A stretch of DNA of 64,000 nucleotides, taken from assembly GCA_036825545.1 (NCBI GenBank), contig DAISYB010000020.1, positions 11-64,010 of the forward strand, read 5' to 3'. Positions 1 through 64,000 of the stretch are shown one piece after another (position 1 is the stretch's first letter; the number at the start of each line of letters is the position of its first letter). The stretch is from Crocinitomicaceae bacterium (GTDB taxonomy: Bacteria > Bacteroidota > Bacteroidia > Flavobacteriales_D > Crocinitomicaceae). The notes beneath the pieces were generated by a model that was not told where the DNA came from, did no database searches, and worked only from the letters and a program-made list of their open reading frames with translations. Made by a program: the position numbers and the translations under genes.

Positions 1-50
1 GTTTACTTTAAAAAGTCGGCACGCCGCCAAGCCCGCTGCCGTTATTTGCA
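1..50 (+). repeat. 3' portion of an attC-like site cut by the window edge, ending in the core-like sequence GTTATTTGCA
   Basis: A GC-rich imperfect hairpin (cggca 17-21 / tgccg 37-41) runs directly into GTTATTTGCA (41-50). That 10-mer is the exact reverse complement of TGCAAATAAC at 3204-3213, at the far end of the downstream two-gene unit. Confidence 0.45.
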
Positions 51-86
51 ATATTGCACCACAGTAAGCATTAAACGATTAATATT

Positions 87-94
87 TATTTTTG
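87..94 (+). promoter_or_regulatory. Candidate Bacteroidota sigma-A -7 box (TATTTTTG, consensus TAnnTTTG) upstream of the methylase gene
   Basis: Exact match to TAnnTTTG. It lies just before an A8 run and the in-frame region that encodes the conserved methylase N-terminus. Confidence 0.35.
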
Positions 95-164
95 AAAAAA
101 AAGTCATCTGGAACTAGAAAAAACATATAAACCATTTTTACGCTGGGCAGGAGGCAAAAATTGG

Positions 165-923
165 TTGTTAAAGAATTTAAACGATTACTTACCTAAAAAG
201 GGATTCAATAATTACATAGAGCCATTTTTAGGAGGGGGATCAATATTTTTTTATTTATCTCCGAAAGATGCAATTCTATCAGATCTAAATAGTGAATTGA
301 TTGAAACATATTGTATTTTAAGAGACTCTGTGGAGCCAATTATTGATGTATTACAAACCTATTCGAATACAGAATCATTCTACTATCAAATTCGATCAAA
401 AATTCCAAAATCGGAAATTGAAAGAGCTGCAAGATTTATTTTCTTAAATCAAACATCATTTAATGGTATTTATCGAGTAAATCTCAAAGGAGAATACAAT
501 GTCCCATATGGATTTCGAACGAAAAATTTTCTTCAGGAAGAAAACCTTCGTTCTGCTAGCGAATGTTTAAAAAGTGTAATTATCAAATCAAGAGATTTTT
601 ATCGCTCTTTGGAGGATGTCAAAAAAGGTGACCTTGTAATTCTCGATCCACCATACACGGTTACTCACAATAATAATGGATTCATTAAATACAATGCAAA
701 ATTATTCGATTTAAATGCCCAAATTGCCCTAAGTAAATACATTGATTGTGTCAATGAAATAGGAGCAAATTATATCTTGACTAATGCCGCCCATGAAGAT
801 ATAAGAAAGATTTTCACTCGAAAACATAACGTTATTGAAACAACGAGTAGAGCAAGCTTAGTTGGTGGGAGTAAGGCCAAAAGAGGTAAATATGACGAAT
901 TTATTATTACAAACATTCATTGA
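165..923 (+). CDS. Dam-family (D12 class) N6-adenine DNA methyltransferase
   Basis: Motif I is EPFLGGGSIFF and motif IV is DPPY (645-656). NQTSFNGIYRVN is typical of Dam/DpnM enzymes. The conserved KPFLRWAGGK box is encoded in frame upstream (129-158) of the first canonical start, so the true start is probably near 108 (CTG). The coordinates given are those of the ORF track. Confidence 0.85.
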   Translation: MLKNLNDYLPKKGFNNYIEPFLGGGSIFFYLSPKDAILSDLNSELIETYCILRDSVEPIIDVLQTYSNTESFYYQIRSKIPKSEIERAARFIFLNQTSFNGIYRVNLKGEYNVPYGFRTKNFLQEENLRSASECLKSVIIKSRDFYRSLEDVKKGDLVILDPPYTVTHNNNGFIKYNAKLFDLNAQIALSKYIDCVNEIGANYILTNAAHEDIRKIFTRKHNVIETTSRASLVGGSKAKRGKYDEFIITNIH

Positions 924-925
924 AA

Positions 926-3202
926 ATGGACGATAACACTAGAATATCTTTATCAGGTAAATTACTCAGCGGGAATGAGTTAAAAAAAGAACTGAATTCC
1001 AGAAAAAGGGAATTTATTTATGAAAGTGTACCAAAGTCTTTAAAAGATGAATTTGAATCAGATGGATGGAAATTAGATAAGGAATTTAAAACAAAGTATA
1101 AATTCAAAAAACTAAAAGAAACTGATATTCAATTTGAAGATCAAGTATGGACATTACTCGCAAATTTGGGTTTTACATTTTTAAACAAAGACAGAAATTT
1201 CAATATCCCATATGATAAAGAAGGTAACACTCAACAAATTGACGTAATAGCGAAGGATGATGAATCAGTTTTAATTATTGAATGTAAAGCTTCGAAGGAG
1301 AAAAATAAAAGGGCTGATTTCAAAAAGGATCTGGAAGCATATTCAAGTAAAATAGGTGGTATTTTGCAATCTGTCAAAGAATTATTTCCAAATTCAAAAT
1401 TAAAATTCAAGTTCATCCTAGCAACCTCAAATTATGCGGTTAGCGAACTAGATTTAGAACGACTAGCAAACATTGGTGGCATTCATTTGGACGAAGAAGC
1501 AATTAATTATTACGGTGAAATGCATAGTCAAATTGGTTTAGCTGCGAGGTATCAATTATTAGGCAGTCTTTTTGAAGGTCAAGAAATTCCCGAAATTCAA
1601 AATGAGATCCCTGCAATACAAGGTAAAATGGGAGGACATACGTATTATTCATTCTCAATTGAACCTGAAAAGCTTCTTAAAATAGGATATGTATTACACA
1701 GAAATAAAGCCAATAGAAAAATGATGCCAACATATCAAAGAATTATTAAGAAGGCTCGAATTAAATCTGTTCAAGAATTTATAGATAATGGCGGTTATTT
1801 TGCAAATTCTATAATAATTAGTATTACAACGAATAATAAGAAATTAAAATTTGACAGAGCAAATACTCAAGTTAAAGATTCCATAGCAGATATTGGTATT
1901 CTTCATCTACCAAAAAAATATAGATCAGCTTTCATTATAGATGGCCAACATCGGTTATATGGATATTCAAACTCTACCTATAAAGCAAAAAATTCAATTC
2001 CTGTTGTTGCGTTTATTGATTTGGATAGAGAAGAACAAGTGAAATTATTTATGCAAATAAATGAAAATCAGAAAGCTGTCCCAAAAAATTTAAGAAATAC
2101 TCTTAATTCTGATCTTCTATGGACTTCTGATAGCTTGCTAGATCAATTTAGAGCAATAAAATCCAGAATTTCATTGGAATTAGGTGAGAACAGAAATTCA
2201 GCATTGTATGACAGAGTTATTATTGGTGAAAATAAAAAAAACAATCTAAGATGTATAACTACCGATACAATTATTAGAGCAATTGGAAGAACAAACTTTT
2301 TAGGAAAAGTTACTAAAACTAAAATTGAAAATCCAGGCTCATTTTACAGAGGGGATTTGGATGATTGTTTCGATAAATTATCTGATTTCCTTATTAGGTC
2401 TTATTCTTATTTAACCGATAACGTCCAAGAAGAATGGAAACGTGGAGAAGATAGTATAATTGGTATAAACAAGGGGGTGTATGCCTATATTATGATCTTA
2501 GGTGATATTGTTGACTTTCTTCTAGAAAACAATATTTGTACCCCTAAGAGTTCATCAAAAGTGTTGTTTGAGGAAAGCAAGACATACATAGACCCGATAA
2601 TTAATTTTTATCTTGAAATTAAACCTGATACTGCTGAAGAATTAAAATCAAAACACGGATCAGGTGGAGATACAAAATACTGGCGTACCTTGCAGTTGGC
2701 TGTTAGAAAAGTACATCAAAATTTCAATCCATTAGGATTAGATGATTATCTAAAAAAGGAAGCTCGAGAGTACAATACTGAAGCATTCAAATATATTAGA
2801 GATATTGAAACTTATTTTAAAGATGATTTTAAAAATAGACTCGAGGATTTTTTCGGTTCTTCTTGGTTTAAAAAAGGTGTGCCGCCTCAAACTGCAAAAA
2901 AAGCTAATGAACTTGCTTTCGACAAAAATTTGACAATTGAAAATGTGGAAGATGAAGTTGACGCATGGGATTGTTTAACAATAATTGCATATAGATCCAT
3001 TGCTGTAAAGAATTGGAGAGAAATCTTTGAAGAACATTATACGAGACCGGGTGAAGAAAAAATGCAAGGAGGTAAAGAAGCAAAGACTGAATGGATGGTA
3101 AAATTGGAAAAACTAAGAAATGAAAACTTCCATCAATATTCAGTGACCGAAGAAGAATTTGATTTTTTACAATCTATTCATGAATGGCTGATTGAAAAAT
3201 AA
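926..3202 (+). CDS. Large fusion protein: N-terminal PD-(D/E)xK nuclease-like core, central DGQHR (DndB/DpdB/ParB-like) domain, C-terminal HEPN-like Rx4H motif
   Basis: IDVIAK..VLIIECK gives D at 1241-1243 and ExK at 1280-1288. FIIDGQHRLYGY places DGQHR at 1940-1954, followed by FMQINENQKAV. LRNENFH lies at 3116-3133. The ATG at 926 is 2 nt after the methylase stop codon; the TTG at 920 in the ORF track is less likely. Confidence 0.7.
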   Translation: MDDNTRISLSGKLLSGNELKKELNSRKREFIYESVPKSLKDEFESDGWKLDKEFKTKYKFKKLKETDIQFEDQVWTLLANLGFTFLNKDRNFNIPYDKEGNTQQIDVIAKDDESVLIIECKASKEKNKRADFKKDLEAYSSKIGGILQSVKELFPNSKLKFKFILATSNYAVSELDLERLANIGGIHLDEEAINYYGEMHSQIGLAARYQLLGSLFEGQEIPEIQNEIPAIQGKMGGHTYYSFSIEPEKLLKIGYVLHRNKANRKMMPTYQRIIKKARIKSVQEFIDNGGYFANSIIISITTNNKKLKFDRANTQVKDSIADIGILHLPKKYRSAFIIDGQHRLYGYSNSTYKAKNSIPVVAFIDLDREEQVKLFMQINENQKAVPKNLRNTLNSDLLWTSDSLLDQFRAIKSRISLELGENRNSALYDRVIIGENKKNNLRCITTDTIIRAIGRTNFLGKVTKTKIENPGSFYRGDLDDCFDKLSDFLIRSYSYLTDNVQEEWKRGEDSIIGINKGVYAYIMILGDIVDFLLENNICTPKSSSKVLFEESKTYIDPIINFYLEIKPDTAEELKSKHGSGGDTKYWRTLQLAVRKVHQNFNPLGLDDYLKKEAREYNTEAFKYIRDIETYFKDDFKNRLEDFFGSSWFKKGVPPQTAKKANELAFDKNLTIENVEDEVDAWDCLTIIAYRSIAVKNWREIFEEHYTRPGEEKMQGGKEAKTEWMVKLEKLRNENFHQYSVTEEEFDFLQSIHEWLIEK

Positions 3203-3203
3203 A

Positions 3204-3290
3204 TGCAAATAACATGCACTAAGCAAAATGGCGCAACAATTACTCTCGAAAGAAAGCGCCACATTGCCTAGTGCAGAACCGTTAGAGTAC
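3204..3290 (+). repeat. attC-like imperfect palindrome A (end of cassette 1, start of cassette 2)
   Basis: TGCAAATAAC, then 1 nt, then arm 3215-3234 tgcactaagcaaaatggcgc, a 21-nt loop, and arm 3256-3275 gcgccacattgcctagtgca (17/20 paired). This is followed by gaacc and GTTAGAGTAC (3281-3290). Confidence 0.6.
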
Positions 3291-3333
3291 ATCACCCACA
3301 CCCGGCCTACTCCCGAAATAAATTTGGAAAATA

Positions 3334-3354
3334 GTAACTTATAAGTTACATTTG
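3334..3354 (+). promoter_or_regulatory. Perfect 16-bp palindrome (likely TA operator) overlapping a -7 promoter box
   Basis: GTAACTTATAAGTTAC (3334-3349) is a perfect palindrome. TACATTTG (3347-3354) matches TAnnTTTG. The toxin ATG follows 4 nt later. Confidence 0.5.
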
Positions 3355-3358
3355 CATC

Positions 3359-3727
3359 ATGAATCAAAAAGTCCGCGAAGTTGTTGAATTTGAGAATCAC
3401 TTTAGTGAATTCCTTATGAAGCAACCCAAAAAGGTTCAGAACAAGATATTTAAGATAATTGAAGCGATTGAAACACTTGAAAGAGTGCCGAGCAATTATC
3501 TGAAAATGCTTGTTGGAACCAATGGACTTTATGAAGCAAGGATCCAATTAGGATCTGATATTTGGAGAGTATTTTGCTTTTTTGACAATGGAAAACTGGT
3601 CATTTTATTAAATAGCTTCACAAAGAAGACTCAAAAGACTCCTAAAAATGAAATTGAAAAGGCACTGCAATTGATGCAGAAGTATCACGCCAGTAGGCGG
3701 ACAGGTTATGACACAAAAAAGAAATGA
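3359..3727 (+). CDS. Type II toxin, RelE/ParE superfamily (HigB / phage Gp49-like)
   Basis: 122 aa. The pattern LYEARIQLGSDIWRVFCFFDNGKLVILLNSFTKKTQKTP is typical of Gp49/HigB-type toxins. The gene sits directly upstream of an XRE-type HTH gene. Confidence 0.8.
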   Translation: MNQKVREVVEFENHFSEFLMKQPKKVQNKIFKIIEAIETLERVPSNYLKMLVGTNGLYEARIQLGSDIWRVFCFFDNGKLVILLNSFTKKTQKTPKNEIEKALQLMQKYHASRRTGYDTKKK

Positions 3728-3728
3728 C

Positions 3729-4019
3729 ATGAGCACAAGAAGTTGGAAAGAAATCAAAGATGAAGTATACGGTAAAAAAGGTACTTCTCGTCGTGATGAG
3801 TTGGAGCGTGAATTCGAGTCATTTAAGATCGGGTTGCTTCTAAAAAAGGCTCGGGAAGAGAAACACTTAACCCAAGAACAACTTGCGGAATTAGTGGATA
3901 AGAAAAGAACTTACATTTCGAGAGTTGAAAATGATGGGAGCAATATGACGCTCAAAACATTATTTGAAATTGTCGAAAAAGGTTTGGGTGGAAAAGTTAA
4001 AATATCCATCCAAATTTAA
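3729..4019 (+). CDS. XRE-family helix-turn-helix antitoxin (HigA-like)
   Basis: LLLKKAREEKHLTQEQLAELVDKKRTYISRVENDGSNMTLKTL is a canonical XRE HTH. The ATG at 3729 is 2 nt after the toxin stop. The alternative in-frame start at 3708 would overlap the toxin gene. Confidence 0.8.
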   Translation: MSTRSWKEIKDEVYGKKGTSRRDELEREFESFKIGLLLKKAREEKHLTQEQLAELVDKKRTYISRVENDGSNMTLKTLFEIVEKGLGGKVKISIQI

Positions 4020-4026
4020 TTTAGAC

Positions 4027-4109
4027 GTACTCTAACACACAGTAAGTAAAATGGCGCACGAACATACTCAAGAGATTGCGCTACTTCGCCTACTGTGGGA
4101 TCATTAGTC
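4027..4109 (+). repeat. attC-like imperfect palindrome B (end of cassette 2)
   Basis: GTACTCTAAC (4027-4036) is the reverse complement of 3281-3290. Then 1 nt, arm 4038-4058 cacagtaagtaaaatggcgca, an 18-nt loop, and arm 4077-4097 tgcgctacttcgcctactgtg. This is followed by ggatc and ATTAGTC, where the core G is replaced by A. Confidence 0.6.
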
Positions 4110-4126
4110 AGAATTATAAAAAGAAT

Positions 4127-4582
4127 ATGAAAACACTAAAAATCACAATTATTTGTGCCATATTTTCAATGGCCATCCTTTCGTGTAAAAAAAATGTCAG
4201 CGGATGTACAGATCCAATGTCTGACAATTACACCGCCGAAGCAAACGTAGAAGATGGAAGTTGTAATTATCATGGGAATCTGATTGCATGGTATGATACA
4301 ATTACCCGTGATAGTCTACTCGCTAATAACGTAGCATCAGTTACTATATTTGTGGATAATGAAACATTCCAAAATATCAATCCTTCCTTTATTCTTTGGT
4401 CCTCTCAACCAGAATGCAGTACAAGTTCAATAGGCAATTGGATAACCATGCAAGGTGTAAAAAACAAGACCATTTCCGTTACTGCAAAAGCATCTGATGG
4501 TTCTAACTCAGAGATCCGCAGTTGGAGTCAGTCAATGACTATAAATGCTGGTGAATGTAAACTTTACCAGATAATTTGGTAA
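4127..4582 (+). CDS. Small lipoprotein, function unknown
   Basis: Signal peptide and lipobox in MKTLKITIICAIFSMAILSC. A Cys-bounded motif CTDPMSDNYTAEANVEDGSC follows. The track ORF start at 4076 would run through the attC-like element, so the ATG at 4127 is preferred. Confidence 0.6.
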   Translation: MKTLKITIICAIFSMAILSCKKNVSGCTDPMSDNYTAEANVEDGSCNYHGNLIAWYDTITRDSLLANNVASVTIFVDNETFQNINPSFILWSSQPECSTSSIGNWITMQGVKNKTISVTAKASDGSNSEIRSWSQSMTINAGECKLYQIIW

Positions 4583-4590
4583 AGATCTAA

Positions 4591-4754
4591 AGCAAATAAC
4601 AGTGTGTGTGCATTATTACCTATTGACGTTGTTAGGGGGGCAAAGGAGGAATAATTGATGCAGAATTCAAGAATGGAAAATGGCATATTAGAAAATAAAA
4701 AACAGATGCTTTGGTTTGTGCCTAGTTGACAGTGAACCATACAAACAGTTAAGG
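4591..4754 (+). repeat. Degenerate, expanded attC-like element C (end of cassette 3 and of the array)
   Basis: It starts with AGCAAATAAC, 9/10 identical to the start of element A. It contains aaaatggc and the right-arm-like sequence gtgcctagttgacagtgaacc (compare A: ttgcctagtgcagaacc). Core-like heptamers are GTTAGGG (4631-4637) and GTTAAGG (4748-4754). The central pairing is poor. Confidence 0.4.
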
Positions 4755-4827
4755 TATTCCACAATTACCAAATCTAAATCGTTCAAAACTCTTTTCAAAA
4801 GGCTGGAAGTCGACCGTGCTTATTTCC

Positions 4828-4835
4828 TATTTTTG
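4828..4835 (+). promoter_or_regulatory. Candidate -7 box TATTTTTG, 4 nt upstream of the ATG at 4840
   Basis: Exact TAnnTTTG match. The box-to-ATG spacing is the same as at 3347-3354/3359 and 21580-21587/21592. Confidence 0.4.
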
Positions 4836-4839
4836 CCTG

Positions 4840-5238
4840 ATGATCCGTTTACTCATTCTTTGTATAGCGATCCTCTCCTTCTCCGCTGCGTGCACCAAAG
4901 GTCATGGCAACAAGTTGGAAAGTGATAAGCTGGATATCTACTTTGAATTCAAAGAAGATGAAAATCTTGCTGCAGGTATCGGAAAGTACTGGAAAAACAA
5001 CGGACTCACAGGTGAACAGAAACAAACACTTCGCCTCACCAAAGATGATCAGTCCTACCTCCTTCAATTGATCGCCAATGATCCAAAAGAAGTAAAAAAC
5101 ATGCCTTTCTCTGAGCTGAAATTGCTACTGGAACTGCAGAAGTCGCTCAATGAAGAACTTTTCTCTGAAACGAAGTCACTAGAGATCATGATTTGTGACG
5201 GATCGTTTAATGCCATCCAAAACATTAATGAATTATGA
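4840..5238 (+). CDS. Hypothetical lipoprotein, first gene of the 4840-10475 operon
   Basis: MIRLLILCIAILSFSAAC is signal-peptide/lipobox-like. The stop overlaps the next start (ATGA at 5235-5238). The track start at 4816 (GTG) is less likely, given the -7 box at 4828-4835. Confidence 0.55.
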   Translation: MIRLLILCIAILSFSAACTKGHGNKLESDKLDIYFEFKEDENLAAGIGKYWKNNGLTGEQKQTLRLTKDDQSYLLQLIANDPKEVKNMPFSELKLLLELQKSLNEELFSETKSLEIMICDGSFNAIQNINEL

Positions 5239-62883: not shown

Positions 62884-64000
62884 AACCTTGCTCGTGCAAA
62901 CCCAAATGCTGCCGAGATACTATTTGAATTTTGTGTAAAGAATGTCAAAGCATCGTAGGACGAAATTCCAAATTCGTATGCCCCATCTTTAAGAATAAAA
63001 TTAATTCCAACTGGAACGTTATTTCGGTAGATGCCACCACCAAAATAACCAGCGCTTATACCAATCCATTTTACAGGACGAACCTCACCTCCCAAAGCTA
63101 CAATTGGATTCACAATTCCTCCAGGATTAGTTCTGTCAAACGGTGCAACTACATCAAAACCAAAACGAGCAATTTTTCCTAAATCTAAGCTCGCTCCAAA
63201 ACGAAAATTCGCTGCATTTTTTAGCACATATTTTTCTTGACCTTCCAATTGAAAAATTGAACCTTCGCGCAAAAATTGATTCGTGCTTTGAGTTACATTG
63301 TAATCCGATAAGCCATTCAAATCGAGCTCAAAGACCAAAGTATCCTTCACACTATATACATTTCGATTGTAGGTAACCTGCCCAATATTATTAACGGATG
63401 CAGCAATTCGAAGGTTATTAAACAGAATCACACTCGCAGAAAGATCTATTCCATAACCATTACCAACGGCAGAAGGCAAAAGATTACCTTCTTTCACGTA
63501 ATTTGAAGGATTTCCTGCTGCTGCCGCTCCATAATCTATATTAAAATTGGGGGACATAGAGGCGTTCATATTGAATCCTTCATCAGTTGATTCCAAATTA
63601 AACATTGCCATCGACTGAATGAATCGCCCACCAATACCCGCGTAAACAACAAAAACTGAATCTTTACCAAAGATTTTTCTTCCGTAACCAAAATTGTAAT
63701 AGCGATTCCAAACTGACCTGATTTCAGATCCCTTCGTTATCTGACTAATATTTAACGGAGTTGAAACTTTACCTGAAATGACTCCATTCAGGGTATCTTG
63801 TGAAAGATTTGGGTTATTCGCAATGACTGAAGTATCACCGTCAATTACTACTGTTAACGAATCAAAATAAGACGCCAATTTACCTTTGAATAGAATATCG
63901 GTCAAATCTTCATTCAATCGTGAATACCACTGGTAACTTTCACGCACATTAAAGGCAATTCCTCCAAGTTTTTCATTTTGATATGCAAATCCACCCCAGT
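62880..64000 (-). CDS. Outer-membrane beta-barrel-like protein (DUF5723-like), N-terminus outside the window
   Basis: The reading frame stays open to position 64000. The sequence alternates aromatic and glycine-rich beta-strands and ends in ..AAFGFARARF. Confidence 0.5.
   Translation of the reverse strand, partial: WGGFAYQNEKLGGIAFNVRESYQWYSRLNEDLTDILFKGKLASYFDSLTVVIDGDTSVIANNPNLSQDTLNGVISGKVSTPLNISQITKGSEIRSVWNRYYNFGYGRKIFGKDSVFVVYAGIGGRFIQSMAMFNLESTDEGFNMNASMSPNFNIDYGAAAAGNPSNYVKEGNLLPSAVGNGYGIDLSASVILFNNLRIAASVNNIGQVTYNRNVYSVKDTLVFELDLNGLSDYNVTQSTNQFLREGSIFQLEGQEKYVLKNAANFRFGASLDLGKIARFGFDVVAPFDRTNPGGIVNPIVALGGEVRPVKWIGISAGYFGGGIYRNNVPVGINFILKDGAYEFGISSYDALTFFTQNSNSISAAFGFARARF

Follow-up and report, generated by a model that had tools for sequence, protein, structure and literature searches.

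The 4,754 nucleotides from position 11 onward in a Crocinitomicaceae contig (DAISYB010000020.1, assembly GCA_036825545.1) raise the question of how a series of gene cassettes, separated by hairpin sites that resemble the attC sites of integrons, came to be assembled in a Bacteroidota chromosome. We analysed the 64,000-nt stretch that begins at nucleotide 11 of this contig (hereafter the window, to which coordinates refer unless a locus is named). A first-pass annotation, made from the sequence alone, had read positions 1-4754 as three consecutive cassettes, each followed by an attC-like site. We conclude that this segment very likely belongs to an integron-like gene-cassette array, of which it forms the recombinase-distal end, in the chromosome of an uncultured, Flavobacteriia-like member of the Bacteroidota. 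The array holds two intact cassettes and one decayed terminal unit (Table 1). With less assurance, we lean towards regarding it as one instance of a large and so far undescribed class of integron-like capture platforms in Bacteroidota, in which the integrase lacks the IntI additional domain and the sites are marked by their own mismatches and an asymmetric spacer.

The two intact cassettes are closed by elements A and B. In hairpin A (arms 3215-3234 and 3256-3275), 17 of 20 positions form Watson-Crick pairs, and hairpin B (arms 4038-4058 and 4077-4097) has 16 of 21 plus 2 G-T pairs, so that all of the pairings and coordinates first given for these elements were reproduced. The exact 10-nt boundary complements reported for the first two units were likewise recovered. 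The nucleotides that open cassette 1 (GTTATTTGCA, 41-50) are the exact reverse complement of those that precede hairpin A (TGCAAATAAC, 3204-3213), and the opening of cassette 2 (GTTAGAGTAC, 3281-3290) is the exact reverse complement of the stretch that precedes hairpin B (GTACTCTAAC, 4027-4036). Element A folded better than its shuffles on both strands (z = -4.0 and -4.5), its bottom strand being the more stable (-17.6 vs. -15.5 kcal/mol for the top strand); in element B the top strand was slightly better. A 26-nt family pattern matched twice in the window and not once in 100 shuffles, and two covariance models (R1 and R2) matched only A and B in the whole window. Element A scored 101 bits (E = 1e-24) with R1 and 34.3 bits (E = 4e-6) with R2, and element B scored 76.9 bits and 25 bits (E = 7e-4), respectively. 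R2 was built only from sites of a second, longer type that lie outside the window, with no window sequence in its training set; because it nevertheless recognises A and B, the short and long types share one architecture. Because the pattern and both models match only two copies in 64 kb, both in the array, A and B are not a dispersed repeat, and the genome-wide scatter expected of repetitive extragenic palindromes (REP) or miniature inverted-repeat transposable elements, which the first-pass annotation had named as fatal to its proposal, was not seen within the window.

The family was searched for by scanning one genome per species with a 19-base pattern derived from A and B. This pattern returned 46 loci, as against about 4 expected from equal base frequencies, the pattern length, and the collection size, and nearly all of them belonged to Crocinitomicaceae, Fluviicola, and other Flavobacteriales. 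The short-type consensus reads N6-TAAC A TGCACTA A GCAA AA TGGCGC (20-nt loop) GCGCCA CA TTGC C TAGTGCA GAACC GTTA-N6, and its 3' half, which lies outside the search pattern, is highly conserved too. Compensatory changes were present in 5 of the 11 stem pairs of the short type (alignment A1), and in the outer stem 22 sequences have CG and 17 have GC at columns 16/69. Sites of the second type, about 132 nt in length, have the same ends and spacers. In their alignment (A7) 90% of cells pair and 15 of 22 pairs show compensatory change, as do 14 of the 18 stem pairs, with a covariation score of 0.457 compared with 0.129 for shuffles and 0.03-0.09 for slid controls; one position never pairs and one T-G pair is conserved. 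The stem covariation proposed earlier from A and B alone extends to the whole family, short and long types alike, and site structure is evidently under selection for pairing.

Both types keep the attC-like order of AAC, L'', loop, L', and GTT, with AAC and GTT invariant. The extrahelical L-box bases of attC sites were not found, the arms being equal (20/20 in A and 21/21 in B) and free of bulges. The A-C and T-G mismatches are conserved, with opposite strand direction in the short and long types, and the sole asymmetry is the spacer beside the R box, which is 1 nt on one side and 5 nt on the other. Among the 44 short-type elements, 36 have the end of a same-strand open reading frame (ORF) within -10 to +60 nt of R'' (median 1 nt), and none abuts an ORF of the opposite strand. 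In 9 of these 36 (L003-L048 plus the window) the cassette gene uses the TAA of the inverse core as its stop codon.

Three further observations concern the family. The loops of integron attC sites are normally variable; here the 20-nt loop of the short type is conserved, as is a loop motif of the long type, TTGACAGTTTAGTGCTCCGAAA, across genomes (L057 13149-13286, L017, L033, L036, and L050; alignments A3 and A7). This motif might serve to bind a protein or to promote transcription of the cassette that follows. A full short-type element was also present on a 6.5-kb contig of a Methylotenera metagenome-assembled genome (L026), binned as a betaproteobacterium, which reflects either mis-binning or transfer. 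A Methanobrevibacter genome (L020) was rejected as an archaeal member since it contained the search pattern and no element, and we regard it as a chance match.

If cassettes are exchanged at the GTT of R', the complementarity seen at the boundaries of the window should recur in other arrays. We compared the nucleotides after the upstream GTT with the reverse complement of those before the AAC of the next element. We examined 25 consecutive same-strand element pairs, drawn from 15 other loci and the window, and 13 of them showed exact complementarity over 9-10 nt; random cross-locus pairs reached this length in 18 of 1909 cases. The flanks on either side of the same element were never complementary over more than 7 nt, and for the most part such variable flanks do not complement each other. 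Two loci (L046 and L047) have one cassette and its element in common, about 95% identical, and become unrelated immediately after GAACCGTTA. The boundary pairs and this divergence after GTTA both point to G|TT, and the initial proposal of cassettes bounded by folded attC-like sites with a crossover at the GTT of R' thus finds support across many genomes.

In L038 the elements are immediately preceded by a tyrosine recombinase gene in the same orientation, and a truncated copy is similarly placed in L048. This recombinase family is large (over 7,800 homologues at E < 1e-20), and its members, mostly from Flavobacteriales, are about 380-405 amino acids (aa) long. One member, P0025, is identical in several assemblies, where it occupies a single chromosomal position after paaABC and is followed by different genes: a BstA-like gene with a HinfI-type restriction-modification pair, two GmrSD genes with cation efflux and MerC genes, or an AccI-type endonuclease. 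The assemblies with P0012 follow the same pattern, their downstream genes differing. Within these groups the sequences are 100% identical through the stop codon and about 110 nt further, ending in ...CGAAGATCTTCGT(A/C)TACCCAAC GTT, and unrelated beyond; position 4 (A or G) is variable after the identical site. The related loci therefore have a site of about 110 nt, ending in AAC|GTT, beside the recombinase and followed by variable first cassettes, as expected of an attI-like site, a layout also seen in L038. The first cassettes end in the complement predicted from their start (e.g., GTTATGGGTC...GACCCATAAC). These comparisons of assemblies place the crossover at or immediately beside GTT, with cassette turnover both at the attI-like site and between cassettes.

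We also retrieved 80 metagenomic loci by their recombinase alone and applied a strict test that requires a cassette closed by a hairpin site. Such a cassette was present in 25 of the 49 loci with at least 800 nt downstream, compared with 1 of 42 on the control side, and the first GTT lay 47-240 nt beyond the end of the aligned recombinase match. Forty-five of the 47 model hits outside the training locus were downstream of the recombinase and on its strand (null 15.5%, p = 3e-34). Loci ended within 400 nt after the recombinase gene far more often than before it (32/80 vs. 6/80), which fits assembly breaks in variable arrays. One locus (L135) has 13 cassettes, each with one co-oriented ORF, and arrays were found beside family members only about 40% identical. 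Across these contigs the recombinase, attI-like site, and array are physically linked, and the recombinase is co-oriented with the cassettes and sites, never divergent from them, in every linked locus.

Several of these loci have features of their own. In L056 (10001-15342) the recombinase and array are flanked by paaC and a paaD-like gene of a phenylacetate catabolic cluster. The first cassette there, 2.9 kb in length, encodes a BstA-like protein on the plus strand, and its HinfI-type restriction-modification pair is read from the minus strand; cassettes can therefore carry opposite-strand genes. L038 (5300-8000) is a high-G+C Flavobacteriales chromosome with AT-rich cassettes, one of which ends in a short-type site like those of the window; the difference in composition suggests transfer between hosts of very different base composition. 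After its last site L038 has a 39-nt unit, GTTGAGCGC...GCGCTCAAC, with no hairpin site behind it. The recombinase of L048 (4938-5237), which stands beside a HigB/HigA cassette with a short-type site, is cut before the region of the catalytic tyrosine (...HSSTKTLFS*) and is likely a pseudogene that heads a fossil array.

The identity of the recombinase bears directly on whether these arrays are integrons. The best relative of P0025 with a solved structure is the Vibrio cholerae integrase VchIntIA (2a3v, E = 4e-41). Their alignment is split, with 22 residues of P0025 (299-320) opposite 65 residues of VchIntIA (182-246). The latter stretch presumably holds the IntI-specific insertion that contacts the extrahelical bases. 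In the AlphaFold model of P0025 only a short hairpin (302-317) stands where the insertion would be. The 14 array-linked proteins that we tested against TIGR02249, the integron-integrase model, all scored below its cut-off (189-226 vs. 265 bits), and their best-aligned stretch ran from profile position 2 to 180 of 315, up to the insertion point. With NF040815 ("site-specific tyrosine recombinase/integron integrase") they aligned contiguously at 214-232 bits and most reached the cut-off of 220, while they fell far below the cut-offs of the XerC and XerD models. As cited in PMC9668308, Messier and Roy (2001) give the IntI-specific additional domain around patch III as the criterion for an integron integrase, and the array-linked recombinases of the related loci do not have it. 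The first-pass annotation had expected a recombinase with this insertion, an expectation that the array-linked recombinases of these loci do not bear out.

What the array-linked recombinases do have is a conserved N-terminal alpha/beta domain of about 70-80 residues, followed by a proline-rich linker and absent from IntI and Xer proteins. It was modelled with confidence (predicted local distance difference test score of about 90) at residues 11-81 of P0025 (alignment A6, columns about 14-95). Only weak DUF5710 hits were found for it in Pfam, and a Foldseek search with the full recombinase model returned nothing informative on this domain and ranked VchIntIA and XerA level. The recombinases of L095, L110, and L132 have N-terminal extensions of more than 250 residues. 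We infer that the missing domain of the recombinase and the missing extrahelical bases of the sites are connected.

We propose that a cassette comprises one gene or two and, behind them, an imperfect hairpin site. In order, the site is made up of N6-TAAC, a single nucleotide, the first stem strand with its conserved mismatches, the loop, the second stem strand, a spacer of 5 nt, and GTTA-N6. Recombination at the GTT of R' would join cassettes, and therefore the N6 after GTTA would move with the downstream cassette and complement the N6-TAAC of that same cassette. New cassettes would be inserted at the attI-like site, AAC|GTT, behind the co-oriented recombinase, which is the presumed catalyst of the exchange. 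By analogy with integrons the site would act as a folded single strand, and full pairing of the 10-bp R box would be limited to the excised circular cassette. What the extrahelical bases do in integrons may here fall to the N-terminal domain, to the mismatches, or to the spacer. The array in the window would, like those elsewhere, be headed by such a recombinase and attI-like site upstream.

The system is therefore integron-like gene capture and not a canonical integron. Like classical integrons (IntI, attI, and attC; in V. cholerae VchIntIA and the V. cholerae repeats, VCR), it has tandem, co-oriented, and apparently mostly promoterless cassettes, an imperfect palindromic site with an inverse-core AAC and a core GTT at which crossover takes place, cassette starts that complement their own ends, an attI-like site beside the recombinase, and strain-variable cassettes rich in toxin-antitoxin and defence genes, as well as a recombinase whose sequence is most similar to VchIntIA. 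Unlike them, it has a recombinase that lacks the IntI additional domain, scores below the cut-off of TIGR02249, has an extra N-terminal domain, and is co-oriented with the cassettes, with the attI-like site behind its stop codon. Its sites differ in their equal arms, conserved mismatches, and 1-nt vs. 5-nt spacer in place of extrahelical bases, in a 10-bp R box as opposed to the canonical 7 bp, and in loops conserved across genera. Integrons with an "inverted integrase", as in Treponema and some other non-proteobacterial lineages, have an integrase that is co-oriented with the cassettes and keeps the IntI additional domain; they are like the present arrays in the former respect and unlike them in the latter. 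Xer recombinases (XerA, XerC/D) are comparable in the length of their catalytic and core-binding domains, and a further point of likeness is that most members reach the cut-off of NF040815, a model for XerA and integron integrases. The pdif modules of Acinetobacter plasmids are Xer-dependent, dif-flanked gene modules, and thus also discrete and bounded by recombinase sites. Whereas dif is a 28-bp duplex, the sites here are covarying hairpins of 80-140 nt in tandem arrays with a dedicated recombinase and an attI-like site.

The closest competing explanation is a canonical integron array without a nearby integrase (a cluster of attC sites lacking integron-integrases, or CALIN), in which the sites would be ordinary attC, a true IntI would be encoded elsewhere, and the adjacent Xer-like recombinases would be bystanders. 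The R''-L''...L'-R' layout, the GTT crossover, and the cassette logic are those of classical integrons, the VchIntIA match of the linked recombinase agrees with this idea, and reviews count Bacteroidota among the integron-bearing phyla. However, bystanders would not account for assemblies whose divergence begins precisely where a conserved site just behind the recombinase ends, or for the 45 of 47 sites downstream of it and co-oriented. All 14 linked recombinases fall below the TIGR02249 cut-off, no other IntI-type ORF turned up in the 46 element loci, and only one complete integron, in Salinibacter, is reported from Bacteroidetes proper by IntegronFinder 2.0 (PMC9024848), where earlier only In0 elements had been found. 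We therefore consider this explanation unlikely. The units might otherwise be small autonomous elements moved by a transposase, since 10-nt inverted repeats bound each of them and the methyltransferase and DndB-like gene pair of cassette 1 is found elsewhere without elements. Against this, the units always stand in tandem and in one orientation, with exactly one hairpin site between neighbours, insertion takes place at a single conserved site beside a tyrosine recombinase, the units come with no transposase, and dispersed copies are absent from the remaining 59 kb of the window, which makes such elements very improbable. Least credible of all are REP-like repeats, transcription terminators, or structured RNAs with no role in recombination, for although the hairpins lie directly behind stop codons and their covariation also fits an RNA structure, no T-run follows the stem, no Rfam family matched anywhere in the window, the only two copies in 64 kb are in the array, and both boundary complementarity and junction-precise exchange would go unexplained.

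Several results weigh against our preferred interpretation of an integron-like array. No recombinase is encoded in the 64-kb window, as the first-pass annotation had already stated, and the DNA upstream of position 1 is unread, with at most 2.1 kb of the 66,110-nt source contig lying outside the window. Element B alone folds no better than its shuffles (z = -1.1 and -0.8), and in alignment A1 the search pattern had itself selected the 5' half. The strict test detected no cassette at about half of the recombinase loci, and in L062 none was found. Finally, the third unit of the window departs from the others: its element (4591-4754) is scored by neither covariance model and folds no better than shuffles (z = +1.3 and +1.4), and its R'' is not complementary to the unit start, ATTAGTCAGA, which breaks the boundary rule.

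Given the lack of a model score and of a folding signal, we rejected region 4583-4760 as a full third member of the family and retained it as a decayed remnant only. The claim of three units, each with a family element, accordingly holds for A and B and is not confirmed for the third. Its R''-like sequence, AGCAAATAAC, starts 8 nt past the stop codon, the AAACA spacer is directly before GTTAAG, and 21 of 24 nt at 4706-4729 are identical to the interior of a long-type element (L057b). The R'' matches the start of cassette 1 instead, at 9 of 10 positions. An exact partner for ATTAGTCAGA, the only one in the window, lies at 63740; it is inside a gene with no adjoining hairpin, and was dismissed as a chance match. 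The inverse-core 9-mer GCAAATAAC is found at 3205-3213 and 4592-4600 and also on a Mariniflexile contig (L031 1992-2001). The 10-mers of the R box are not random and prefer T-R-C at the outer end, so that chance 9/10 matches are likelier than uniform odds suggest.

The distal boundary of the array was located by comparison with relatives of about 78% nucleotide identity. BLASTN homology of L064-L066 and L150 begins at position 4822, and similarity by eye begins at GTATTCCACAA (4755), directly after the GTTAAG at 4748-4753. We place the end of the array at 4754, as first annotated, because similarity to relatives without an array begins at 4755. The same chromosomal site has neither array nor insert in L065, L150, and L152. 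In L064 (1-6800) and L066 (1400-6800) it holds an unrelated island of about 5 kb with minus-strand ORFs, among them genes for baeRF-family and FGE-sulfatase-domain proteins, and with no repeats or model hits. This intergenic spot is an insertion hot spot. It had been proposed that relatives be compared for cassette changes precise to the junction; at this site the relatives have no array to compare, and such changes were found in arrays elsewhere.

The features of the window are listed in Table 1. The truncated element at positions 1-40 was scored by neither covariance model. Independent Logan contigs from the same run break within elements, L002 at position 16 and both L001 and L002 within element A (3214/3240), and an exact 35-nt search of the metagenome collection for DNA upstream of position 1 gave no match. 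The G+C content is 31.1% in cassette 1, 36.9% in cassette 2, and 35.9% in unit 3, compared with 40.0% in the remaining window, which bears out the earlier impression that the segment is more AT-rich than the core genes that follow. Every ORF in the array is oriented toward its own attC-like site, also as first described.

Table 1. Features of the array and of its distal boundary, in window coordinates.
Feature	Position	Strand	Remarks
Putative partial preceding attC-like element, 3' portion	1..40	+	Abuts the GTT that opens cassette 1; contains GCCAAGC, a long-type 3'-arm motif
R' box GTTATTTGCA, cassette 1 start	41..50	+	Exact reverse complement of 3204-3213
Cassette 1 (methyltransferase + DndB/DpdB-like gene)	41..3280	+	31.1% G+C
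D12-class methyltransferase frame	96..923	+	Canonical start only at 165
DndB/DpdB-like gene, 758 aa	926..3202	+	
Element A, short-type attC-like site	3204..3290	+	Model scores, fold, boundary match
Element A, parts			R'' 3204-3213; 1 nt; arm 3215-3234; loop; arm 3256-3275; spacer GAACC 3276-3280; R' 3281-3290
Cassette 2, toxin-antitoxin pair	3281..4102	+	Boundary 10-mers exactly complementary
Gp49/HigB-like toxin	3359..3727	+	PF05973, 8e-22
HTH_3 antitoxin	3729..4019	+	96 aa as called, open frame from 3708; PF01381, 2e-12
Element B, short-type attC-like site, somewhat degenerate	4027..4112	+	Spacer GGATC; R' ATTAGTCAGA, with A replacing G
Terminal unit 3	4103..4754	+	151-aa lipoprotein-like ORF (4127-4582) and decayed element remnant; missing from relatives that align from 4755/4822
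Probable decayed long-type attC remnant	4591..4754	+	R''-like AGCAAATAAC 4591-4600; interior GTTTGTGCCTAGTTGACAGTGAAC 4706-4729; spacer AAACA; GTTAAG 4748-4753
First conserved chromosomal DNA, upstream of core lipoprotein gene	4755..4840	+	GTATTCCACAA...CGTTCAAAACTCTT, common to L150

The genes of cassette 1 are probably a restriction-modification-like defence pair, judging by their domain matches. The methyltransferase matched PF02086 (1.5e-45) and the PADLOC model MTase_II (316 bits), and the 758-aa protein, which has a nuclease-like N-terminus, matched PF14072 (2.5e-17) and PADLOC DpdB (74 bits). The pair (78-3193) is also present, 82% identical, in another genome (L063) without any element, which therefore offers no second cassette context for it. 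The conserved N-terminal motif of the methyltransferase, KPFLRWAGGK, lies upstream of the first ATG, GTG, or TTG (92-165), and relative to the L063 homologue, which has a TTG start, the window copy has a 1-nt shift in an A-run. The gene may thus be truncated at its 5' end, phase-variable, or started at a non-canonical codon. Pfam matches also substantiate the toxin-antitoxin pair first proposed for cassette 2, and the lipoprotein-like ORF of unit 3 had no match in Pfam or PADLOC. Sedentary chromosomal integrons are reported to hold defence and toxin-antitoxin genes (bioRxiv 10.1101/2024.07.02.601686).

Our full-text literature searches found no description of this system, although their coverage was incomplete and prior publication is possible; we think it somewhat probable that the system has not been described so far. 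A classification of tyrosine recombinases calls the insertion "not fully conserved" in an integron-like subgroup and links no such proteins to arrays. The definition of an integron, and the software that searches for integrons, rest on the inserted domain of the integrase and the extrahelical bases of attC, and by that definition Bacteroidota are almost devoid of them. A recombinase without the defining domain may explain why integron reports in this phylum are close to zero.

The arrays behave like integrons in every comparative test available, namely the boundary rule, junction-precise turnover, and an insertion site beside the recombinase. If they do form a class of capture platforms of their own, the canonical IntI architecture is no precondition for capturing cassettes on folded DNA, and integrons seem nearly absent from Bacteroidota only because they escape detection. 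Confirmation by experiment would widen the host range of integron-type capture to a major environmental phylum and would provide a natural test of which IntI and attC features recombination of folded DNA requires. It would also open up a large reservoir of cassette genes, among them restriction-modification-like systems, GmrSD, BstA, toxin-antitoxin pairs, and metal efflux.

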